DNA from: Escherichia coli
Lineage (GTDB): Bacteria > Pseudomonadota > Gammaproteobacteria > Enterobacterales > Enterobacteriaceae
Length of the DNA: 64,000 bases
Assembly: GCF_044324785.1 (NCBI RefSeq)
Contig: NZ_CP172127.1
Reading direction: 5' to 3' (one strand)
The position numbers were made by a program, and so were the translations under genes. Of the stretch, positions 3,015 to 61,426 are shown in pieces. Under the pieces are notes generated by a model that did no database searches, was not told the DNA's origin, and saw only the letters and a list, made by a program, of their open reading frames with translations. Each line of letters starts with the position of its first letter. The first letter of the stretch is position 1.

Positions 3015-3671
3015 ATGAAACAGCCTGCGCCCGTTTATCAGAGAATTGCGGGTCATCAATGGCGACATATCTGGCTTTCAGGCGATATACACGGTTGTCT
3101 TGAGCAGTTGCGCCGCAAATTATGGCATTGTCGTTTTGATCCGTGGCGAGATTTACTTATCTCAGTGGGAGATGTTATCGATCGTGGGCCGCAAAGTTTA
3201 CGTTGTCTGCAGTTACTGGAACAACATTGGGTTTGTGCGGTAAGAGGCAATCATGAACAGATGGCGATGGATGCGCTGACATCTCAGCAGATGTCTTTGT
3301 GGTTGATGAATGGCGGCGACTGGTTTATTGCGCTGGCAGATAATCAACAGAAACAAGCGAAAACGGCGCTGGAAAAATGTCAGCATTTGCCCTTTATTCT
3401 TGAAGTACACAGTCGCACCGGCAAACATGTTATTGCTCATGCCGATTATCCAGATGATGTTTATGAATGGCAAAAGGACGTTGATTTGCATCAGGTCTTG
3501 TGGAGCCGCTCGCGATTAGGTGAACGCCCAAAAGGGCAGGGAATTAAAGGTGCTGATCATTTCTGGTTTGGTCATACACCGTTGCGACATCGCGTGGATA
3601 TTGGCAACCTGCATTATATTGATACCGGTGCTGTCTTTGGGGGCGAACTGACTCTTGTGCAATTGCAATAA
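3015..3671 (+). CDS. pphA: Serine/threonine protein phosphatase 1 (PrpA)
   Basis: Track ORF 3012..3671 (219 aa) with the second Met giving 218 aa, MKQPAPVYQRIAGHQWRHIWLSGDIHG; calcineurin-like phosphoesterase signature GDxxDRG present (GDVIDRG). Confidence 0.9.
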   Translation: MKQPAPVYQRIAGHQWRHIWLSGDIHGCLEQLRRKLWHCRFDPWRDLLISVGDVIDRGPQSLRCLQLLEQHWVCAVRGNHEQMAMDALTSQQMSLWLMNGGDWFIALADNQQKQAKTALEKCQHLPFILEVHSRTGKHVIAHADYPDDVYEWQKDVDLHQVLWSRSRLGERPKGQGIKGADHFWFGHTPLRHRVDIGNLHYIDTGAVFGGELTLVQLQ

Positions 3672-13221: not shown

Positions 13222-13252
13222 ATCAGGCACAAGAAATTGTGCCTGATTTTTT
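13222..13252 (+). terminator. Intrinsic terminator after prc
   Basis: atcaggcacaa-gaaa-ttgtgcctgat hairpin followed by TTTTTT. Confidence 0.8.
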
Positions 13253-13407
13253 AACAGCGGCAAGATGCTGTAAATCAGATGCTACAAAATGTAAAGTTGT
13301 GTCTTTCTGGTGACTTACGCACTATCCAGACTTGAAAATAGTCGCGTAACCCATACGATGTGGGTATCGCATATTGCGTTTTGTTAAACTGAGGTAAAAA
13401 GAAAATT

Positions 13408-14289
13408 ATGATGCGAATCGCGCTCTTCCTGCTAACGAACCTGGCCGTAATGGTCGTTTTCGGGCTGGTACTGAGCCTGACAGGGATACAGTCGAGCAGC
13501 GTTCAGGGGCTGATGATCATGGCCTTGCTGTTCGGTTTTGGTGGTTCCTTCGTTTCGCTTCTGATGTCCAAATGGATGGCATTACGATCTGTTGGCGGGG
13601 AAGTGATCGAGCAACCGCGTAACGAAAGGGAACGTTGGCTGGTCAATACTGTAGCAACCCAGGCTCGTCAGGCGGGGATCGCTATGCCGCAAGTGGCTAT
13701 CTACCATGCGCCGGACATCAACGCTTTTGCAACCGGTGCGCGCCGTGATGCCTCTCTGGTTGCTGTCAGCACCGGTTTGCTGCAGAACATGAGCCCGGAT
13801 GAAGCCGAGGCGGTAATTGCTCATGAAATCAGCCACATCGCCAATGGTGATATGGTCACCATGACGCTGATTCAGGGCGTGGTGAACACCTTCGTTATCT
13901 TTATTTCCCGTATTCTGGCGCAGCTTGCCGCGGGTTTTATGGGCGGAAATCGTGATGAAGGTGAAGAGAGCAACGGCAACCCGCTGATCTACTTTGCGGT
14001 TGCAACGGTTCTGGAACTGGTGTTTGGTATTCTGGCGAGCATTATCACCATGTGGTTCTCGCGTCATCGTGAATTCCACGCTGATGCGGGTTCAGCAAAA
14101 CTGGTTGGTCGCGAGAAAATGATTGCTGCATTGCAGCGCCTGAAAACCAGCTATGAACCGCAAGAAGCAACCAGCATGATGGCTTTCTGCATTAACGGTA
14201 AGTCGAAATCGCTCAGTGAGTTGTTCATGACTCACCCGCCGCTGGATAAACGTATTGAAGCTCTGCGTACGGGTGAATACCTGAAGTAA
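13408..14289 (+). CDS. htpX: Membrane zinc metalloprotease HtpX
   Basis: 293-aa ORF with HEISH zinc-binding motif ([11 protein letters not shown]) and transmembrane segments. Confidence 0.9.
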
Positions 14290-14308
14290 TATGAAGTAAA
14301 TACTAAAA

Positions 14309-14337
14309 AGCGCGTCCTGATCGACGCGCTTTTTTTA
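14309..14337. terminator. Intrinsic terminator after htpX, overlapping the yebQ stop codon
   Basis: agcgcgtc-ctgatc-gacgcgct hairpin with A-run before and T-run after; the T-run contains the minus-strand yebQ stop codon. Confidence 0.75.
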
Positions 14338-15708
14338 TGCCCTGGCTCGTGGCTGAGTGATACGTAAACCACTGACACAGGCAGCAATCACTGCCAGAAT
14401 AGCCGCAGCCATCAGCGAGACGTGCGTACCATTATCACCAAACTGATTTAGCATTAGCGCCACCAGCGCCGCGCCGCTACTCTGACCCAGTAGACGAGCC
14501 GTCCCTAACATGCCACTGGCTCCACCGCTACGTTCACGAGGAGCAGAGGTAATAATGGTGTGGTTATTGGGTGACTGGAATAAGCCAAATCCAGCACCAC
14601 ATAAGATCATCGGCCAGATAATATTGATATCCGCAGGTGACGCGGGTAGTAGAACCAGGGAAAAAAGCCCCGCAGCCATGATTAACAATCCTAAAGCACC
14701 CAGCAATCCTGCATGTACGCGTTCAATCAAATAGCCTGCCAGCGGAGCCATCACCATTGTTGCTAACGGCCACGGTGTCAGAAGTAAACCTGTTTCGACT
14801 TCACTACGCCCGAGCACGGTTTGCAGGTAAAAGGGCAGGGAAACCATTGCCAGCATTTGTGCGCAGAAAGAGCAAACAGATGTGCAAATAGAAAGTGTAA
14901 ACAGCGGGATACGCAGTAAATCCACCGGTAGCAGCGGTACGGGAAGAGAAAGCTGGCGGCGAATAAAGAAAATACCAACGACAACCATTACCACCAGTTC
15001 CGCACCAATCAATGTCAGCGATTGCCCCTGAGCGAAACCACTCAACGCAGTGATAAGCAGGCCGAAGGTTAACGCGTTCATCACGGCGCTGGGCAGGTCG
15101 AAACGGGGTTTACTGGCGCGAGAACCATTGGGTGGCAGAAAACGCATTGCCAGAAGCAGGGCGATAATTCCCAACGGTACGTTGATTAAAAATAACCATT
15201 TCCAGGATGCGATGGAGAGGATTGCTGCAGCAATTGTCGGCCCGGCAGCAGAAGAGACGGCAACAATAAACGAGTTTATGCCCATCCCTCTACCCAGAAA
15301 ACGTTGTGGATAGATCAGGCGGATAAGTGCGGTATTAACGCTCATCAAAGCTGCACCGCCGAAACCTTGTATGACACGCGCAAGGGTGAGCATTTGCAGC
15401 GAATCAGAAAGGGCGCAGAACAGTGAAGACAACAGAAAAACGACCAGACCGCATTTATAAACACGTCGATAGCCAAACATATCCCCCAGAAACGAAAACG
15501 AGAGCAGGGAGATGACAATGGCGATTTGATAGGCGTTCACTACCCAGATGGAACTGGCCGGTGTGGCATGAAGGTCTGTGGCGATTGTTGGCAAGGCGAC
15601 GTTGGCGATTGCACCGTCAAGCACAGCCATCGAAATACCAATCACAATGGTTAATATCGCACCGTATCGCTGGGGCAACGGCAGGCCGTCGGCCTGAACT
15701 TTTGGCAT
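14335..15708 (-). CDS. yebQ: MFS-family efflux transporter YebQ
   Basis: Track ORF 14335..15819 trimmed to MPKVQADGLPLPQRYGAILTIV... (457 aa); 14-TMS-like hydrophobic profile. Confidence 0.85.
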   Translation of the reverse strand: MPKVQADGLPLPQRYGAILTIVIGISMAVLDGAIANVALPTIATDLHATPASSIWVVNAYQIAIVISLLSFSFLGDMFGYRRVYKCGLVVFLLSSLFCALSDSLQMLTLARVIQGFGGAALMSVNTALIRLIYPQRFLGRGMGINSFIVAVSSAAGPTIAAAILSIASWKWLFLINVPLGIIALLLAMRFLPPNGSRASKPRFDLPSAVMNALTFGLLITALSGFAQGQSLTLIGAELVVMVVVGIFFIRRQLSLPVPLLPVDLLRIPLFTLSICTSVCSFCAQMLAMVSLPFYLQTVLGRSEVETGLLLTPWPLATMVMAPLAGYLIERVHAGLLGALGLLIMAAGLFSLVLLPASPADINIIWPMILCGAGFGLFQSPNNHTIITSAPRERSGGASGMLGTARLLGQSSGAALVALMLNQFGDNGTHVSLMAAAILAVIAACVSGLRITQPRARA

Positions 15709-15884
15709 AGGAATTTTATATCTTTGGTGAATAATCAACAGGGGTAAGATTCTAGCACTGATATTCACGGTGGATGTCGCAGAATTGTAACTAACCGGCA
15801 AAAGATGGATTGCGACCACCCAGGTGCGAAATTATAATAAAAAACAGTTCTGATTTTTATAAAACACTCGCAATGAGGTGATAA

Positions 15885-16676
15885 ATGGCTAACGCAGATC
15901 TGGATAAACAGCCTGATTCTGTATCTTCCGTGCTAAAAGTTTTTGGCATTTTGCAGGCGCTGGGTGAAGAGCGCGAAATAGGGATAACCGAGCTGTCGCA
16001 ACGCGTCATGATGTCAAAAAGCACCGTTTATCGCTTTTTACAGACCATGAAAACCCTGGGTTATGTGGCGCAGGAAGGGGAGTCGGAGAAATATTCCCTG
16101 ACCCTGAAATTGTTTGAACTGGGCGCTCGCGCGTTACAAAACGTCGATTTAATTCGTAGCGCAGATATCCAGATGCGTGAGATCTCCCGCCTGACGAAAG
16201 AAACTATCCACCTCGGCGCACTGGACGAAGACAGTATTGTTTACATTCACAAAATTGACTCTATGTACAATTTGCGCATGTATTCACGGATTGGGCGTCG
16301 TAATCCGCTGTACAGCACCGCGATTGGTAAGGTACTGCTGGCATGGCGCGATCGCGATGAAGTGAAGCAAATTCTTGAGGGCGTGGAGTATAAACGCAGT
16401 ACCGAGCGGACCATCACCAGTACAGAAGCGTTATTACCCGTTCTGGACCAGGTGCGCGAGCAGGGGTATGGCGAAGATAACGAAGAGCAGGAAGAAGGGC
16501 TGCGATGCATTGCGGTACCGGTATTTGATCGCTTTGGCGTGGTCATTGCCGGTTTGAGCATCTCCTTCCCGACGTTGCGTTTCTCTGAAGAGCGTTTAAA
16601 GGAATATGTCGCAATGTTGCATACCGCAGCGCGCAAAATTTCTGCCCAAATGGGTTATCACGACTATCCATTCTGA
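15885..16676 (+). CDS. kdgR: IclR-family transcriptional regulator KdgR
   Basis: 263-aa ORF with N-terminal helix-turn-helix and IclR effector domain; recognised as KdgR. Confidence 0.9.
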   Translation: MANADLDKQPDSVSSVLKVFGILQALGEEREIGITELSQRVMMSKSTVYRFLQTMKTLGYVAQEGESEKYSLTLKLFELGARALQNVDLIRSADIQMREISRLTKETIHLGALDEDSIVYIHKIDSMYNLRMYSRIGRRNPLYSTAIGKVLLAWRDRDEVKQILEGVEYKRSTERTITSTEALLPVLDQVREQGYGEDNEEQEEGLRCIAVPVFDRFGVVIAGLSISFPTLRFSEERLKEYVAMLHTAARKISAQMGYHDYPF

Positions 16677-17723: not shown

Positions 17724-18392
17724 TCCTTCCTCAATCTTGAGTAACCCCGTCGTTGAAGGGTTACTCAATTCATCCTGATTATACGCACTGCCATGGTGCA
17801 ACTGCTTCAAATTAAAACTCTGGTCTGACTTCAAATAATTATCATATTATTTATTTGCGTAACGGGATATCAGAAAAAGATATTTAGCCCATTAATTTAT
17901 TAGGATGTTTACATCGGATTTGTGATTAAGTGTGGTATTATTTATTAGCGAAACGTTTCTCTCTTGATTTTTTTGCGCATTCATCAATTTTTCTTATTTT
18001 AAATTTACAATACCTTTGGCGATTGACTTCTCTTTGGGGTGATTGATAGCCGTTAACTGACTGTTTTATGAGAAAAAGTGATATAACTTTTTATTCATTG
18101 CATAGCAGAAAATGTGATATTGCACGCACTATGTAATAACTTCTCCCATTGGCCTGGAACAACTGAACTTATTGAACTATGTTAGAAAATACGTCAGTTT
18201 AAGTATCTGCCTGAACTGGCAAGGTTAAGCACAATGATATATCGGCGCGTATTCCGTTGCATAAGTGTGCAAAAAAAGTGGAAGACGTATCGAGATTTGT
18301 GCGTCTGATCGAGACATGTTTAAAAATGGCTTGCCATAATTAACGTTGTATGTGATAACAGATTTCGGGTTAAACGAGGTACAGTTCTGTTT

Positions 18393-18536
18393 ATGTGTGG
18401 CATTTTCAGTAAAGAAGTCCTGAGTAAACACGTTGACGTTGAATACCGCTTCTCTGCCGAGCCTTATATTGGTGCCTCATGCAGTAATGTGTCAGTTTTA
18501 TCTATGTTATGCCTGCGGGCGAAGAAAACAATCTAA
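18393..18536 (+). CDS. yobF: Small protein YobF (47 aa), co-transcribed with cspC
   Basis: Hand translation [47 protein letters not shown]; stop 12 nt before the cspC start. Confidence 0.8.
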
Positions 18537-18548
18537 GGAATTTTTCAA

Positions 18549-18758
18549 ATGGCAAAGATTAAAGGTCAGGTTAAGTGGTTCAACGAGTCTAAAGGTTTTG
18601 GCTTCATTACTCCGGCTGATGGCAGCAAAGACGTGTTCGTACACTTCTCTGCTATCCAGGGTAATGGTTTCAAAACTCTGGCTGAAGGTCAGAACGTTGA
18701 GTTCGAAATTCAGGACGGTCAGAAAGGTCCGGCAGCTGTTAACGTAACAGCTATCTGA
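18549..18758 (+). CDS. cspC: Cold-shock-family protein CspC
   Basis: 69-aa [72 protein letters not shown] with RNP1/RNP2 motifs. Confidence 0.95.
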
Positions 18759-18803
18759 TCGAATCCACTGATCTGAAGTGTGAATACGCTTCAATCTCGC
18801 TAT

Positions 18804-18830
18804 AAAGCCTCGTCGAATGCGAGGCTTTTT
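18804..18830 (+). terminator. Intrinsic terminator after cspC
   Basis: aaagcctcg-tcgaatg-cgaggctttttt hairpin plus T-run. Confidence 0.8.
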
Positions 18831-18923
18831 ACTTTGCTTTCTCTTCGCTCCAGTCGTTCGGATATTTGCCCGCCGCGTGATTCGCGTTACACTTGCGGCC
18901 TTTAGTATCCTGCCGGAGTTGTC

Positions 18924-19733
18924 ATGTCGTTTTCCTGTCCACTTTGCCATCAGCCTCTTTCGCGTGAAAAAAACAGCTATATCTGTCCCCAGCGACATCA
19001 GTTTGATATGGCGAAAGAAGGGTATGTCAATCTGCTGCCCGTTCAGCATAAACGGTCTCGTGATCCGGGCGACAGCGCGGAAATGATGCAAGCACGCCGC
19101 GCATTCTTAGATGCCGGACATTATCAGCCGCTGCGTGATGCAATTGTCGCTCAACTGCGGGAACGGCTTGATGAAAAGGCCACAGCGGTGCTGGATATTG
19201 GCTGTGGTGAAGGGTATTACACACACGCATTTGCCGATGCGCTGCCCGAAATCACCACGTTTGGCCTGGATGTCTCGAAGGTAGCGATAAAAGCGGCGGC
19301 GAAACGCTATCCGCAGGTCACTTTTTGTGTTGCTTCCAGCCACCGTTTGCCGTTTTCCGATACCAGTATGGACGCCATAATACGTATTTACGCGCCGTGT
19401 AAAGCAGAAGAATTAGCGCGAGTAGTGAAGCCTGGCGGTTGGGTCATTACTGCCACGCCGGGACCGCGACATTTGATGGAGCTGAAGGGGCTGATTTACA
19501 ATGAAGTACATCTTCATGCACCACATGCAGAACAACTGGAAGGTTTTACATTACAGCAGAGTGGTGAGTTGTGTTATCCGATGCGTCTTCGCGGTGACGA
19601 AGCCGTCGCATTATTGCAGATGACGCCGTTTGCCTGGCGTGCGAAGTCAGAAGTCTGGCAAACACTGGCAGCAAAAGAAGTGTTCGACTGCCAGACGGAC
19701 TTTAATATTCACCTCTGGCAGCGTTCTTATTAA
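18924..19733 (+). CDS. rlmA: 23S rRNA m1G745 methyltransferase RlmA
   Basis: 269-aa ORF with N-terminal Cys4 zinc motif (CPLCHQ...CPQRH) and SAM-binding DIGCGEG motif. Confidence 0.9.
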
Positions 19734-20296: not shown

Positions 20297-20525
20297 GACA
20301 ACGTCCTGACCGGGGTATCCATAAAACACATCATCGCCCCCAGCAAACATGCATACATGAACGACAAACCGCGATGGTTTTCGCGTTCATGCAGGCATAG
20401 CGATTGATGTGCATATGGTCTCGCCTGACTGAAAGTGTTCAGTCCGTACGTGCCACGTTTTGCAACGAGTATGTTGACACGTACATTTCCGGAATCTGGA
20501 AATCGGCTACTCCCCAAATGAGGGC
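20297..20525 (-). ncRNA. mntP 5' leader containing yybP-ykoY-type Mn2+ riboswitch
   Basis: Minus-strand leader contains the hallmark motif TTGGGGAGTAGCC (plus-strand 20507-20519 region) and an ...AGACCATATGCACATC... segment; known long Mn-responsive mntP leader. Confidence 0.6.
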
Positions 20526-20661
20526 GCAACCTTAACATATTTTGAGAATATAAAACAACTGTTGGAATATATTATTTCATTGCTTTATTGATAACGATTT
20601 TCATTTAGATTTATATATCAATGAAACGTTAAAATAAATAACAAATAAGGGAAGGGGTAAT

Positions 20662-20718
20662 ATAGCCTAAGCTATGTCTGATTATTAAAAATACACTAAA
20701 CATAGCTTTGGCTAAATT
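20662..20718. promoter_or_regulatory. Two MntR-box-like palindromes upstream of the mntP leader
   Basis: ATAGCCTAAGCTAT (perfect 5-bp arms) at 20662-20675 and AAACATAGCTTTGGCTAAATT at about 20698-20718, resembling the AAACATAGC..GCTATGTTT MntR operator. Confidence 0.45.
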
Positions 20719-20724
20719 GATAAC

Positions 20725-21237: not shown

Positions 21238-22098
21238 TTACAGTCCCAGCAGGCCGCAAGCGTAACCAGCGATACCGATGACGAAGAAGCCAACGATGAT
21301 CCACAGCGGGTTAACTTTTTTGCGTAGTAGCCACATACAGGCAAAGGTCAGCAGCAGTGGTACCAGGCCTGGCATTAACTGGTCCAGAATAGTCTGAACA
21401 GTGGTAACGTGTTCTTTGCCCGTCTGGTCAGTAATGCGAGAGACAACCAGCGGGATGTTGACATGCGTCCACTTGTTAACTAATGCCCCCATGACAAACA
21501 GGCCGAGGATAGACGCCCCTTCCGTCAGTTTTTGCAGGAAACCACCACCCATATCTTTAACGATATCGATACCTTTGGAGTAACCATACGCTACGCCGTA
21601 GTAACGGGTTGCCAGACGCACCAGGTTAAACAAGATGAAGAACAGCAGCGGACCTAACAGGCTGCCGCTCATTGCGATACCGGCACCAAGCGCTGCAAAT
21701 ACCGGACGTACGGTTCCCCAGAAGATCGGGTCGCCTACACCAGCCAGCGGCCCCATCAAACCGACTTTGATACCGTTGATAGCACCGTCATCGATCTCTG
21801 CGCCATTAGCACGCTGTTCTTCCAGCGCCAGGGTTACGCCGAGAATCGGCGCAGCCACGAACGGCTGGGTGTTAAAGAACTCCAGGTGACGGCGAATAGC
21901 TTGTTTACGAGCTTCGTTGTTCTCAGGGTAGAGGCGACGAATTGCCGGTACCATAGAGAAGCAGAAACCCAGTGCCTGCATACGTTCGAAGTTCCATGAA
22001 CCCTGGAAGAGGTTAGAACGCAGGAAGACGCCACGAATATCACTTTGAGTGAGTTTTTTCTCGGTGGTAGTTTGAGTTGTATCAACCATTTCGCTCAC
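21238..22098 (-). CDS. manZ: PTS mannose-specific EIID component
   Basis: 286-aa ORF MSEMVDTTQTTTEKKLTQSDIRGVFLRSNLFQGSWNFERMQALGF...; last gene of manXYZ. Confidence 0.9.
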   Translation of the reverse strand: MSEMVDTTQTTTEKKLTQSDIRGVFLRSNLFQGSWNFERMQALGFCFSMVPAIRRLYPENNEARKQAIRRHLEFFNTQPFVAAPILGVTLALEEQRANGAEIDDGAINGIKVGLMGPLAGVGDPIFWGTVRPVFAALGAGIAMSGSLLGPLLFFILFNLVRLATRYYGVAYGYSKGIDIVKDMGGGFLQKLTEGASILGLFVMGALVNKWTHVNIPLVVSRITDQTGKEHVTTVQTILDQLMPGLVPLLLTFACMWLLRKKVNPLWIIVGFFVIGIAGYACGLLGL

Positions 22099-24398: not shown

Positions 24399-25955
24399 AT
24401 GGAATTCTTAATGGACCCCTCAATTTGGGCGGGGCTACTCACGCTTGTTGTTCTCGAAATTGTGCTGGGTATCGATAACCTGGTCTTCATCGCCATTCTT
24501 GCTGACAAACTGCCGCCAAAACAACGCGATAAAGCGCGTTTGCTGGGATTATCACTGGCGCTGATTATGCGTCTGGGGCTGCTGTCGCTGATTTCATGGA
24601 TGGTCACGCTGACCAAACCGCTATTTACCGTCATGGATTTCTCCTTCTCCGGACGTGACCTGATTATGTTGTTCGGGGGAATATTCTTGCTGTTCAAAGC
24701 AACAACCGAACTGCATGAACGGCTGGAAAACCGCGATCATGATTCCGGTCACGGTAAAGGCTACGCCAGTTTCTGGGTGGTCGTCACACAGATCGTCATC
24801 CTTGACGCCGTCTTCTCGTTGGATGCGGTAATTACGGCAGTAGGGATGGTTAACCATCTGCCAGTGATGATGGCGGCGGTAGTGATTGCGATGGCGGTTA
24901 TGCTGCTGGCATCGAAACCGCTGACGCGATTTGTTAACCAGCATCCAACGGTGGTGGTGCTCTGTCTGAGCTTCCTGTTAATGATTGGTCTGAGTCTGGT
25001 GGCAGAAGGTTTCGGTTTCCACATTCCGAAAGGTTACCTGTATGCCGCGATTGGCTTCTCGATCATCATCGAAGTGTTTAACCAGATTGCGCGTCGCAAC
25101 TTTATTCGTCACCAGTCGACTTTGCCGCTGCGAGCGCGTACTGCCGATGCCATCCTGCGTTTGATGGGCGGGAAACGTCAGGCCAATGTTCAGCACGATG
25201 CCGATAACCCGATGCCGATGCCGATCCCGGAAGGTGCATTTGCCGAAGAAGAACGTTACATGATTAACGGCGTACTCACGCTGGCGTCGCGTTCTCTGCG
25301 CGGGATCATGACGCCGCGCGGTGAAATAAGCTGGGTTGACGCTAATCTCGGGGTCGATGAAATCCGCGAGCAGCTGCTCTCCTCACCGCACAGCCTGTTC
25401 CCGGTATGTCGCGGTGAACTGGATGAAATCATCGGAATCGTACGTGCTAAAGAACTGCTGGTGGCGCTGGAAGAGGGCGTTGATGTGGCGGCGATTGCTT
25501 CGGCGTCTCCGGCGATTATCGTCCCTGAAACCCTCGATCCGATCAACCTGCTGGGCGTGCTGCGTCGTGCTCGCGGGAGCTTTGTTATCGTGACCAACGA
25601 GTTTGGTGTGGTACAAGGCTTGGTCACGCCGCTGGATGTGCTGGAAGCCATTGCGGGTGAATTCCCGGACGCTGACGAAACGCCGGAAATCATTACTGAT
25701 GGTGACGGCTGGCTGGTAAAAGGCGGTACAGATTTGCATGCCTTGCAGCAGGCGCTTGATGTTGAGCACCTTGCCGATGACGATGATATCGCGACGGTCG
25801 CGGGCCTCGTGATCTCGGCAAATGGTCACATTCCCCGTGTGGGCGATGTGATTGATGTAGGTCCACTGCATATCACCATCATTGAAGCCAATGATTATCG
25901 TGTTGATCTGGTTCGCATTGTTAAAGAGCAACCGGCGCACGATGAAGATGAGTAA
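24399..25955 (+). CDS. yoaE: TerC-family membrane protein with CBS/CorC C-terminal domains, YoaE
   Basis: 518-aa ORF: N-terminal polytopic TerC-like half, C-terminal soluble CBS-pair and transporter-associated region. Confidence 0.9.
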
Positions 25956-25958
25956 GCG

Positions 25959-27557
25959 TTAACGTAACGGCATAACGGGCGTGATATGTCCATTATGCCG
26001 GGCGGGCGGCGGTTGGCTGCCCGCCAGCCATTTGGGAAAATCACGTAGCGGCATCGGCTGTGCGTACAAATACCCTTGCAAAATATGCACGCCATGACGG
26101 CGCAAATACTTCGCCTGTTCTTGCGTTTCCACGCCCTCCGCCACCAGTTCAATATTCAGTCTTTGCCCCAGCGCGATGATGATATCGGTCACCGTCGAGT
26201 TAACCGCGTCAGAACCTATAGCTGCGGTAAATGACTTATCAATTTTCAGCACGTCAGGACGTAATGTTTCAAGCCAGGAAAACGAGCTGTTGCCGGTGCC
26301 GAAGTCATCAATCGCCAGTTTGACGTTTTTACGATGCAGCTCGCGGGCAATCCGATAATCCACATCCAGTAAGGCATCGCGTTCGGTGATTTCGAGGATC
26401 AGTTGCTGAATCGGGTGAGCGCTAAACCAGTACTGATTGAGATCTTTTATCAGCACACCACGGCGAAAATGGCTGGGTGCGACGTTAATGCCAACATGAA
26501 ACTGACTACTCATAGGGAAAACATGGCGCTGACGAATGGTTTCTGCCATCACATAGCGGGTCAGTGGCACAATTAAATGATGTTCTTCCGCGATAGGAAT
26601 AAACACATCCGGTGAAATCCAGCCCTGACGCGGATTGTTCCAGCGCAGCAAAATCTCTACACCAATACATTGCTGGCTGCGCGCATTAAGCAAAGGCTGA
26701 CAGAACAATTCGAACTCATGTTGCGCCAGGCCCAGATTGATTTCACGGGAAAAACTCATCCGGTAAGCGGTCGCCAGCCAGGCGATATAGCCCACAAGTA
26801 AACTTAGAAGCACCGCCAGCGGTAATTGTGTTGGAAGATAGTGCCATGCCAGCGCCGTAGCCCCCGGACCATTAACGTTAATGGTAAAAGGAAAGCGTTG
26901 CGAAGAAACCTGATAGTTTTCATTGTCTTCAGGTTGCGGAAGGGTATCTACCAGCCCATTACCATAGAGCAAATGCCGATTGTCCACCGTCAGGCTGGCG
27001 CTACTGATTTGCGGCAGTTGTGGCTCAAGCAGCATTGCCGCCAGTAAGTCGATGTTAATCATCTCCATGACCCCAGCATTGCTACTGCCCGCTGCTGGCG
27101 TCCATTGAATCAAAACCGGACTGCCTTTAATCAGGGCACGGTCGATCGTCAGGCGTAAAAGTGGTTGCGGTGCAGGAAGTTCAGCCAGAATGTCCACGAC
27201 GGGCACATTGCGATAACCAAAAATGCTGGAGCAATAAAGTGTGCCGTCTTGCACCAGGCCAATGGATCGCACAGTTTGGAGTTTTGCCGCCTGTTTACGT
27301 AATGGCAAATGGGCGACAGAGCAGGGCAGACCAATTAGCGGAAGTAAGACTTCGCTACCTGCCTGTAGGGGAAGCAGTACTTTATCTAATTCCTCTACAG
27401 CGTGATTGGCGAATTGTACTACCCGTTGTTGATTTAAGTTACGCTGTGAAATAAATCGCACGCTCAGGGTCGAAGCGAGCGTAACGAGTGCGCAAATCGT
27501 ACAAACAATCATTCGATTACGGCGATAGGTTTTAATGATCCGTTGTGCTTTTTGCAT
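25959..27557 (-). CDS. pdeD: c-di-GMP phosphodiesterase PdeD (YoaD), CSS-motif sensor plus EAL domain
   Basis: Track ORF 25959..27587 trimmed to MQKAQRIIKTYRRNRMIVCTI... (532 aa); EAL-domain motifs EITER, DDFGTG and QGYLY visible. Confidence 0.85.
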   Translation of the reverse strand: MQKAQRIIKTYRRNRMIVCTICALVTLASTLSVRFISQRNLNQQRVVQFANHAVEELDKVLLPLQAGSEVLLPLIGLPCSVAHLPLRKQAAKLQTVRSIGLVQDGTLYCSSIFGYRNVPVVDILAELPAPQPLLRLTIDRALIKGSPVLIQWTPAAGSSNAGVMEMINIDLLAAMLLEPQLPQISSASLTVDNRHLLYGNGLVDTLPQPEDNENYQVSSQRFPFTINVNGPGATALAWHYLPTQLPLAVLLSLLVGYIAWLATAYRMSFSREINLGLAQHEFELFCQPLLNARSQQCIGVEILLRWNNPRQGWISPDVFIPIAEEHHLIVPLTRYVMAETIRQRHVFPMSSQFHVGINVAPSHFRRGVLIKDLNQYWFSAHPIQQLILEITERDALLDVDYRIARELHRKNVKLAIDDFGTGNSSFSWLETLRPDVLKIDKSFTAAIGSDAVNSTVTDIIIALGQRLNIELVAEGVETQEQAKYLRRHGVHILQGYLYAQPMPLRDFPKWLAGSQPPPARHNGHITPVMPLR

Positions 27558-36236: not shown

Positions 36237-37922
36237 TTGAAGAAGGTTTGGCTTAACCGTTATCCCGCGGACGTTCCGACGGAGATCAACCCTGACCGTT
36301 ATCAATCTCTGGTAGATATGTTTGAGCAGTCGGTCGCGCGCTACGCCGATCAACCCGCGTTTGTGAATATGGGGGAGGTGATGACCTTCCGCAAACTGGA
36401 AGAACGCAGTCGCGCGTTTGCCGCTTATTTGCAACAAGGGTTGGGACTGAAGAAAGGCGATCGCGTTGCGTTGATGATGCCTAATTTATTGCAATATCCG
36501 GTGGCGCTGTTTGGCATTTTGCGTGCCGGGATGATTGTCGTAAACGTTAACCCGTTGTATACCCCGCGTGAACTTGAGCATCAGCTTAACGATAGCGGCG
36601 CATCGGCGATTGTTATCGTGTCTAACTTTGCCCACACTCTGGAAAAAGTGGTTGATAAAACCGCCGTTCAGCACGTAATTCTGACCCGTATGGGCGATCA
36701 GCTATCTACGGCAAAAGGCACGGTAGTCAATTTCGTTGTTAAATACATCAAGCGTCTGGTGCCGAAATACCATCTGCCAGATGCCATTTCATTTCGTAGC
36801 GCCCTGCACAACGGCTACCGGATGCAGTACGTCAAACCCGAACTGGTGCCGGAAGATTTAGCTTTCCTGCAATACACCGGCGGTACCACTGGTGTGGCGA
36901 AAGGCGCGATGCTGACTCACCGCAATATGCTGGCGAACCTGGAACAGGTTAACGCGACCTATGGTCCGCTGTTGCATCCGGGCAAAGAGCTGGTGGTGAC
37001 GGCGCTGCCGCTGTATCACATTTTTGCACTGACCATTAACTGCCTGCTGTTTATCGAACTGGGTGGGCAGAACCTGCTTATCACTAATCCGCGCGATATT
37101 CCAGGGTTGGTAAAAGAGTTAGCGAAATATCCGTTTACCGCTATCACTGGCGTTAACACCTTGTTCAATGCGTTGCTGAACAATAAAGAGTTCCAGCAGC
37201 TGGATTTCTCCAGTCTGCATCTTTCCGCAGGCGGAGGGATGCCTGTTCAGCAAGTGGTGGCAGAACGTTGGGTGAAACTGACTGGACAGTATCTGCTGGA
37301 AGGTTATGGCCTGACCGAGTGTGCGCCGCTGGTCAGCGTTAACCCGTATGATATTGATTATCATAGTGGTAGCATCGGTTTGCCGGTGCCATCGACGGAA
37401 GCCAAACTGGTGGATGACGACGACAACGAAGTACCACCGGGTCAACCGGGTGAGCTTTGTGTCAAAGGACCGCAGGTGATGCTGGGTTACTGGCAGCGTC
37501 CGGATGCTACCGATGAAATCATCAAAAATGGCTGGTTACACACCGGCGACATCGCGGTGATGGATGAAGAAGGATTCCTGCGCATTGTCGATCGTAAAAA
37601 AGACATGATTCTGGTTTCCGGTTTTAACGTCTATCCCAACGAGATTGAAGATGTCGTCATGCAGCATCCTGGCGTACAGGAAGTCGCGGCTGTTGGCGTA
37701 CCTTCCGGCTCCAGTGGTGAAGCGGTGAAAATCTTCGTAGTGAAAAAAGATCCATCGCTTACCGAAGAGTCACTGGTGACTTTTTGCCGCCGTCAGCTCA
37801 CGGGCTACAAAGTACCGAAGCTGGTGGAGTTTCGTGATGAGTTACCGAAATCTAACGTCGGAAAAATTTTGCGACGAGAATTACGTGACGAAGCGCGCGG
37901 CAAAGTGGACAATAAAGCCTGA
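36237..37922 (+). CDS. fadD: Long-chain fatty acid-CoA ligase FadD (TTG start)
   Basis: Track ORF 36171..37922 trimmed to TTG-initiated (M)[25 protein letters not shown]... (561 aa); AMP-binding motif [11 protein letters not shown] present. Confidence 0.9.
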
Positions 37923-37940
37923 GCGTTAAGTCAGTCGTCA

Positions 37941-37967
37941 GACGCCGGTTAATCCGGCGTTTTTTTT
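37941..37967 (+). terminator. Intrinsic terminator after fadD
   Basis: acgccgg-ttaat-ccggcgt hairpin followed by TTTTTTT. Confidence 0.85.
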
Positions 37968-39125: not shown

Positions 39126-39168
39126 CCGAAGCCGGACTGGGCGCGCTCAGCGCCACATCCGGCTTCGG
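39126..39168. repeat. REP-like palindromic element between convergent rnd and yeaX
   Basis: ccgaagccgg ... ccggcttcgg 10-bp inverted repeat enclosing a GC-rich core; contains the CCGGATG-type REP signature (catccggc). Confidence 0.45.
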
Positions 39169-50631: not shown

Positions 50632-51453
50632 ATGATGCATAGGTTGAATCTCAATGGCTATGAACCCGACCGACACCATGAAGCCGCGGTCGCATTTTGT
50701 ATTCACGCCGGAACGGATGAGTTAACCAGTCCTGTACATCAGCACCGCAAAGGGCAGCTGATACTGGCGCTACATGGTGCAATTACCTGTACGGTGGAAA
50801 ATGCTTTGTGGATGGTGCCGCCGCAATATGCGGTTTGGATACCGGGAGGGGTGGAACATAGCAATCAAGTGACAGCTAACGCTGAACTCTGTTTTCTGTT
50901 TATCGAACCCAGCGCAGTGACAATGCCGACAACCTGTTGCACATTGAAAATATCGCCCTTATGCCGGGAATTAATTTTAACCCTGGCAAACAGGACGACG
51001 ACTCAGCGTGCTGAGCCGATGACCCGCAGATTAATTCAGGTCCTGTTTGATGAACTCCCTCAGCAGCCACAACAACAGCTGCACCTACCCGTTTCTTCTC
51101 ATCCTAAAATTCGCGCGATGGTGGAGATGATGGCGAAAGAGCCCGTCGAGTGGGGGTCATTGGGGCAATGGGCTCGCTTTTTTGCGATGAGTGAACGCAA
51201 TCTTGCCCGACTGATAGTGAAAGAGACGGGGTTGAGTTTTCGCCAGTGGCGTCAGCAGTTACAGCTGATTATGGCGCTTCAGGGATTAGTGAAAGGCGAT
51301 ACTGTACAGAAAGTTGCTCATACGCTGGGGTATGATTCAACAACGGCCTTTATTACTATGTTTAAGAAAGGCCTGGGGCAAACGCCAGGCCGATATATTG
51401 CGGGATTAACTACTGTTTCCCCACAATCAGCGAAACCAGACCCGCGGCAATAA
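50632..51453 (+). CDS. nimR: AraC-family transcriptional regulator NimR (YeaM)
   Basis: 273-aa ORF with N-terminal cupin-like domain and C-terminal AraC helix-turn-helix; 3' end overlaps yeaL by 44 nt. Confidence 0.85.
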
Positions 51454-60571: not shown

Positions 60572-61426
60572 ATGCAACAAAAAATGATTCAATTTAGTGG
60601 CGATCTCTCACTGCCAGCCATAGGGCAGGGAACATGGTATATGGGCGAAGATGCCAGTCAGCGTAAAACAGAAGTTGCTGCACTACGCGCGGGCATTGAG
60701 CTCGGTTTAACCCTCATTGATACCGCCGAAATGTATGCTGATGGCGGTGCCGAAATGGTGGTTGGGGAAGCATTAACCGGCCTGCGTGAGAACGTCTTTC
60801 TCGTCTCTAAAGTCTATCCGTGGAATGCTGGCGGGCAAAAAGCGATAAATGCATGCGAAGCCAGTTTACGCCGTCTCAATACTGATTATCTCGATCTCTA
60901 CTTATTACACTGGTCTGGCAGTTTCGCTTTTGAAGAGACTGTCGCAGCGATGGAAAAATTGATTGCCCAGGGAAAAATCCGCCGCTGGGGCGTTTCTAAC
61001 CTTGATTATGCCGATATGCAGGAACTCTGGCAGCTGCCGGGGGGAAATCAGTGTGCCACTAATCAGGTGCTTTACCATCTCGGTTCACGAGGGATTGAGT
61101 ACGATCTACTCCCCTGGTGCCAGCAACAGAAGATACCGGTGATGGCTTACAGTCCGTTAGCTCAGGCCGGGCGGTTGCGCAATGGGCTGCTAAAAAACGC
61201 AGTAGTCAACGAAATTGCACATGCTCACAATATCAGCGCGGCACAAGTATTGTTAGCGTGGGTAATCAGCCATCAGGGGGTGATGGCGATTCCAAAAGCG
61301 GCCACGATAGCCCATGTCCAACAAAATGCGGCTGTGCTTGAGGTTGAACTTTCGTCAGCGGAATTAGCTATGCTGGATAAGGCATATCCGGCACCAAAAG
61401 GTAAAACTGCGCTGGATATGGTGTGA
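60572..61426 (+). CDS. yeaE: Aldo-keto reductase YeaE
   Basis: Track ORF 60527..61426 trimmed to MQQKMIQFSGDLSLPAIGQGTWYMGED... (284 aa). Confidence 0.85.
   Translation: MQQKMIQFSGDLSLPAIGQGTWYMGEDASQRKTEVAALRAGIELGLTLIDTAEMYADGGAEMVVGEALTGLRENVFLVSKVYPWNAGGQKAINACEASLRRLNTDYLDLYLLHWSGSFAFEETVAAMEKLIAQGKIRRWGVSNLDYADMQELWQLPGGNQCATNQVLYHLGSRGIEYDLLPWCQQQKIPVMAYSPLAQAGRLRNGLLKNAVVNEIAHAHNISAAQVLLAWVISHQGVMAIPKAATIAHVQQNAAVLEVELSSAELAMLDKAYPAPKGKTALDMV

Follow-up and report, generated by a model that had tools for sequence, protein, structure and literature searches.

We analyzed a stretch of 64,000 nucleotides of Escherichia coli DNA (hereafter the window; positions are numbered from its first letter), in which the genes htpX and yebQ lie tail to tail. 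The htpX coding sequence occupies 13408-14289 of the plus strand, encodes 293 amino acids, and closes with TAA at 14287-14289, whereas yebQ occupies 14335-15708 of the minus strand, starts with ATG at 15708, and encodes 457 amino acids. Both genes were delimited by the list of open reading frames and by the RefSeq annotation of strain N3, to which the region from 13300 to 15900 is 100% identical; in this annotation of the same DNA, the genes of the region are named prc, htpX, yebQ, and kdgR. The region was matched at 95% or more in 5,423 of the 5,426 complete E. coli genomes. The HtpX protein scored 481.6 bits against the NCBIfam equivalog for protease HtpX (NF003965; cut-off, 245 bits), and YebQ is a DHA2-like MFS transporter whose match to TIGR00711 (226.9 bits) lies slightly below the cut-off of 230.2 bits. 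Together with the RefSeq names, these matches confirmed the two gene identities assigned in the preliminary description, which had been made from the sequence alone. The convergent genes are separated by a spacer of 45 bp (14290-14334), with the same boundaries in the list of open reading frames and in the RefSeq annotation of N3. Across the full 64 kb, the window and N3 were only 98.99% identical, and their differences comprised a cluster of small indels within manZ (21405-21442), a 7-nt insertion in the spacer between rnd and yeaX (39151-39157), and a 1-nt indel within yeaE at 61039, a gene that is annotated as frameshifted in N3.

Published coordinates were transferred to the window by our own conversion (window position = 1925984 − MG1655 coordinate), anchored on the htpX coding sequence, which lies at 1911695-1912576 on the minus strand of MG1655. 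A consensus scan found a promoter-like site upstream of htpX on the plus strand (13332-13359), in which TTGAAA and TACGAT are separated by a 16-nt spacer, and the htpX transcription start published from SMRT-Cappable-seq (NC_000913.3, 1912618) corresponds to window position 13366, 7 nt 3' of this site. Farther upstream, the terminator of the co-directional prc gene (13223-13252) starts 6 nt past the prc stop codon and consists of the stem TCAGGCAC...GTGCCTGA followed by T6; a strong prc 3' end is found in published data at MG1655 1912729-30, approximately window 13254-55. Its flanks are symmetrical, with AA before the stem and T6 after it, and the scan therefore called the prc terminator on the minus strand too.

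From position 14290 onward, the htpX-yebQ spacer, the yebQ stop codon, and the last yebQ codon read TATGAAGTAAATACT AAAAA GCGCGTC CTGATC GACGCGC TTTTTTT A TGC on the plus strand. The spacer thus holds an A5 tract (14305-14309), a 5' stem arm GCGCGTC (14310-14316), a loop CTGATC (14317-14322), a 3' stem arm GACGCGC (14323-14329), and a T7 tract (14330-14336) whose last two positions, 14335-14336, are common to the yebQ stop. The hairpin (14310-14329) has a stem of 7 bp, all of them Watson-Crick and 6 of them G-C pairs, and a loop of 6 nt; five A-T pairs can lengthen the stem to 12 pairs. Both arms are non-coding on both strands, and the loop is variable among E. coli strains and reads CTGCTC in O157:H7. 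A distance of 20 nt separates the stem from the htpX TAA, and on the opposite strand the GC stem lies 5 nt from the yebQ stop. This stop codon, TAA on the minus strand, occupies 14335-14337 (TTA on the plus strand) according to the reading frame, the list of open reading frames, and RefSeq, and it follows the last sense codon GCA (Ala) at 14338-14340. The preliminary description had recognized a real hairpin with an adjoining T-run, but had placed the T-run at 14331-14337, one position too far; the base at 14337 is an A.

The hairpin was predicted to be stable as RNA of either strand. The plus-strand RNA folded at -18 kcal/mol (z, -3.2), with 3 of 200 shuffled sequences equally stable, and the minus-strand RNA at -24 kcal/mol (z, -4.9), with none of 200 equally stable. 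A score of the d'Aubenton-Carafa type, built on ViennaRNA energies, was positive both ways (d, 31.1 in the htpX direction and 22.9 in the yebQ direction), and the T-tail scores were 4.98 for the T7 tract, which serves as the U-tract of the htpX terminator, and 4.18 for the predicted yebQ-direction terminator, in which the A5 tract is transcribed as U5 and followed by AGUAUUU. The consensus scan called a terminator with 12 pairs on the minus strand and did not list one on the plus strand, an omission that is probably a limitation of the tool, as the A-T extension of the stem leaves too few T residues for the tail. No Rfam family reached its gathering score over the terminator. Sub-threshold Rfam matches (STnc420, Trp leader, and others) were set aside as a generic resemblance to families that end in terminators. 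A repeated extragenic element (REP or similar) was also considered and rejected: the median number of places matched by an 81-nt query was one per E. coli genome, and with a single copy in 5,423 of the 5,426 complete genomes, the element belongs to no repeat family.

In E. coli K-12, the 3' end of the htpX mRNA has been mapped to MG1655 1911647, which is window position 14337. One data set (TRS; PMC10687069 supplement) lists a "Primary" htpX terminus at 1911643-1911653 with its peak at 1911647 or 1911644, and gives the identical hairpin sequence with a fold of -17.6 kcal/mol. In a second one, obtained by SMRT-Cappable-seq (PMC6131387 supplement), a full-length transcript that contains only htpX extends from 1912618 to 1911647; 50 reads were counted at the start and 21 at the end, 1 further read stops within 50 nt of this end, and 1 passes it by at least 50 nt, which corresponds to a readthrough of approximately 1 in 23 reads at the htpX terminator. 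The same supplement types the site as "terminator" and gives 1911665 as the center of the nearest known b1829 terminator, which is window position 14319, within the loop. Thus, the earlier proposal that the hairpin terminates htpX was borne out by two published data sets. With its GC stem-loop, its U7, and a 3' end at the end of the U-tract, the hairpin has the features of an intrinsic terminator of htpX. Because the A at 14337 corresponds to the U of the yebQ UAA on the other strand, the htpX transcript ends on the yebQ stop codon.

We addressed the conservation of the element by an HtpX scan with one genome per species, which gave 80 loci; in 28 species, all of them Enterobacterales, a convergent and near full-length yebQ lies beside htpX. 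Most of these 28 species kept the A-run, GC-stem, and T-run in the spacer, and in 17 of them, including members of Escherichia, Citrobacter, Enterobacter, Pseudescherichia, and Pseudocitrobacter, two Erwinia species, and Serratia oryzae, the yebQ TAA is made up of an A and the final two T of the T-run. Stem pairs were counted from extracted arms, as MAFFT misregistered stems with unequal loop lengths. Ten stem sequences were found among 21 species, in which all seven pair positions varied and no position held a non-pair, a full pairing that is partly so by construction because the hairpins were located by a perfect-stem search. Such varying and yet paired stems have the look that a structural, non-coding element would be expected to have. 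A-runs were also present at htpX terminators without a convergent yebQ in a comparison in which the calls of next-ORF orientation were noisy; given these A-runs and the symmetrical flanks of the prc terminator, an A-run is therefore no proof of two-way use. Among four sampled E. coli variants, the T-run and the stop codon were unchanged, and the differences lay in the loop, upstream of the hairpin, or in the top stem pair, where a change from C to T gives a G-U wobble on the htpX strand.

Insertions and a frameshift were also observed at this site. An IS200C element is present in 188 of the 5,426 complete genomes of E. coli exactly between T14336 and A14337, within the yebQ stop codon (example copy, 1538-2249 of extracted locus L002). 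The end of this element (...TATTTATT) rebuilds TTA, and the yebQ stop is therefore kept; a hairpin and T5 at the IS200C end directly follow the stop and are a possible replacement terminator. A second, unrelated insertion sequence in the same small spacer, IS4, is situated within the terminator hairpin of E. coli isolate AHB7 (locus L089, 1545-3010), with a 13-bp duplication, GTCCTGATCGACG, that corresponds to window positions 14314-14326. In the draft genome of E. albertii NBRC 107761 (locus L003, 1035-1115), a 7-bp deletion near the 3' end of yebQ (GAGTGATACGTAAACCACTG to GAGTAATCCACTG) shifts the reading frame, and the shifted open reading frame crosses the whole hairpin and ends with TAG just before the A-run (...HKKARQPGRAF*; ...SGLLSHETRHKKARQPGRAF*). 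This frameshift may be real or may be an error of the draft assembly.

In the yebQ direction, the RNA of the minus strand reads GCA UAA AAAAA GCGCGUC GAUCAG GACGCGC UUUUU AGUAUUU, that is, the same stem and then UUUUUAGUAUUU. The layout is that of a bidirectional terminator, with A5 on one side, T7 on the other, and the hairpin between convergent genes. No yebQ 3' end was found in the supplements of TRS, SMRT-Cappable-seq, Adams et al. (eLife), or TERMITe; in particular, those of Adams et al. hold no entry at 19115xx-19117xx, and a b1828 transcript is wholly absent from the SMRT-Cappable-seq table, which points to a low expression of yebQ and not to readthrough. Among the papers found, the literature on "yebQ" consists of transporter studies. 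The U5 tract, the terminator score, and the conservation nevertheless suggest that the same hairpin likely terminates yebQ. The predicted 3'-end zone of the yebQ mRNA is 14298-14305 on the minus strand, from the usual distance of 7-9 nt between stem and 3' end; this zone corresponds to approximately 1911679-1911686 on the plus strand of MG1655.

Taken together, the results are best explained by a canonical Rho-independent terminator with a symmetrical A-run, GC-stem, and T-run in the htpX-yebQ spacer, a reading to which we assign a probability of roughly 0.85. The polymerase from htpX makes the GCGCGUC-CUGAUC-GACGCGC hairpin followed by U7, and the RNA is released at approximately 14337, over the complement of the yebQ stop. 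The polymerase from yebQ would make the complementary hairpin 5 nt past the UAA, followed by UUUUUAGUAUUU, and would probably stop at approximately 14298-14305, before reaching the htpX reading frame. With these two stop points, each mRNA would end short of the codons of the other gene, and the two 3' ends would overlap by approximately 35 nt. The site would in this way be a clean and conserved example of one hairpin that serves two convergent genes of a compact bacterial genome, with neither transcript entering the coding region of the other.

A different possibility is that the hairpin works one way, terminating htpX while most transcription from yebQ reads through. While the polymerase is at the U-tract, the 5' arm would be hidden by a ribosome positioned on the UAA, which is 5 nt away from the stem, and the yebQ RNA would run antisense into htpX until it is ended by Rho or by collision with the htpX polymerase. 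This proposal draws on the work of Li et al. in E. coli, in which termination was approximately 90% with the stop codon 28 bp upstream of tR2 and less than 10% with the stop codon moved to 5 bp. The repression, in which the 5' arm of the tR2 hairpin is covered by the terminating ribosome, was abolished when translation and transcription were uncoupled (PMC4824070). The stop-to-stem distance of 5 nt on the yebQ side equals the spacing that largely inactivated tR2 in that reporter series, the yebQ-side U-tract is shorter (U5 vs. U7) with a lower score, and a yebQ 3' end is absent from the TRS and SMRT-Cappable-seq tables. However, low yebQ expression explains the absent 3' ends equally well. In addition, spacings of 5-7 nt from the stop codon are frequent among the native terminator-like sites of the window (prc, 6 nt; yebT, 7 nt; yeaH, 5 nt), and the prc site has a strong mapped 3' end. 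The tR2 reporter was highly expressed, and a coupling as tight as in this RFP reporter would be unlikely for the poorly translated mRNA of a membrane transporter. Thus, we consider one-way use unlikely, with about one chance in several. A related proposal is still far less probable and is offered as speculation: the 5-nt spacing between stop and stem, found in 17 of the 28 Enterobacterales species, might make the yebQ-direction terminator sensitive to translation. If so, a coupled ribosome at the UAA would block the hairpin and the polymerase would proceed antisense into htpX, whereas uncoupled transcripts would terminate, so that interference with htpX, a stress protease gene, would be linked to the translation of yebQ.

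The mapped htpX 3' end could also be a processing product, with termination farther downstream and 3'-to-5' exonucleases trimming the RNA back to the hairpin. Stable hairpins do block exonucleases, and 3'-end sequencing alone does not separate termination from trimming. However, the htpX end lies at the last position of the U7 tract, 8 nt past the stem, which is the signature of intrinsic termination, whereas trimming would usually halt nearer the stem; moreover, the full-length capped reads that end at the site outnumber those continuing for at least 50 nt by 21 to 1. We therefore regard trimming as very improbable, and intrinsic termination accounts better for the htpX end.

The relation of the terminator to the yebQ coding sequence differed from what had been proposed for it. 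The preliminary description had placed the yebQ stop codon inside the T-run; the overlap is real, but just two T are shared, together with the A at 14337. It had further claimed that the final codons of yebQ are encoded within the stem. On the minus strand, however, the translation ends with ...RITQPRARA* and continues as non-coding KKRVDQDALF, and the entire stem-loop lies past the yebQ stop, in its 3' UTR, together with five T of the T7 tract. A terminator stem that encodes the final yebQ codons, and on which coding, structure, and termination would act at once as a triple constraint, has next to no chance of being correct in spite of the two-base overlap of stop codon and T-run and of the E. 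albertii draft, whose frameshifted yebQ suggests that such an arrangement can exist, for the yebQ frame closes at 14335-14337 with the non-coding stem (14310-14329) wholly downstream, RefSeq concurs, and the stem varies freely across genera (ten variants), as expected of non-coding sequence. Coding constrains the element at one point only, where its last two T and the A have to read TAA on the opposite strand. Synonymous mutagenesis of the C-terminal yebQ codons, which had been suggested earlier, would leave the hairpin untouched. TAA is the sole stop codon whose complement starts with TT; the yebQ TAA, which is TTA on the opposite strand, therefore merely prolongs the T-run, and it is the packing of the genes that brings this stop codon into contact with the end of the neighbor's T-run.

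Other convergent pairs in the window are packed more tightly. The gaps of pphA/yebW and yoaI/yeaK are 0 bp and the yoaE/pdeD spacer is 3 bp, while rlmA/mntP overlap by 4 nt and nimR/yeaL by 44 nt; these junctions are situated at 3671/3672, 19730-19733, 25955-25959, 51410-51453, and 52130/52131. No canonical terminator hairpin was called by the window scan at the junctions of these five tighter pairs. Rfam matches at gathering level elsewhere in the window were SraC/RyeA and SdsR/RyeB on opposite strands, a cspA-type thermoregulator over yobF and a cold-shock gene, and sroD (2740-2884, 18373-18833, 37881-37966, and 20297-20720). A yybP-ykoY riboswitch has been described for E. coli mntP, and no Rfam match to this manganese riboswitch was observed 5' of mntP in the window.

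The SEnd-seq sites of overlapping bidirectional termination (Ju et al. 2019) offer one comparison. According to a summary in a later preprint (bioRxiv 10.1101/2022.10.23.513370), these sites "do not resemble intrinsic terminators", and polymerase collision is the mechanism proposed for them. As far as that text describes them, they resemble the htpX-yebQ element in lying between convergent pairs, and the 3' ends would here likewise overlap by tens of nucleotides; unlike them, the htpX-yebQ element has, on either strand, the form of a textbook intrinsic terminator.

The closer relatives are bidirectional intrinsic terminators in tail-to-tail spacers, which have long been described as a class. 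The classic case is reportedly the E. coli tonB/P14 terminator, attributed to the 1985 work of Postle and Good. The TransTermHP paper treats the A-run and T-run flanks of bidirectional terminators as routine (PMC1852404). The htpX-yebQ element shares with tonB/P14 and the TransTermHP class a GC hairpin flanked by an A-run and a T-run, a short tail-to-tail spacer, and a hairpin and U-tract that are encoded by both strands. It differs from the class in that, in the data sets searched, mapped 3' ends were found for the htpX direction only, and in that the yebQ stop codon enters the T-run, a positional detail that leaves the mechanism the same. The catalogued b1829 terminator of K-12 lies at the same locus and has the same hairpin as the window; the A-run and T-run are identical as well, and in the compared segment the two differ by one base, in the third-from-last codon of yebQ (GGCTCG in the window vs. 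GGATCG in K-12, ...PRARA vs. ...PRSRA). Thus, the htpX terminator had been catalogued before and is an element of a known kind, with nothing outside known biology, placed so that the stop codon of a convergent neighbor extends its T-run.
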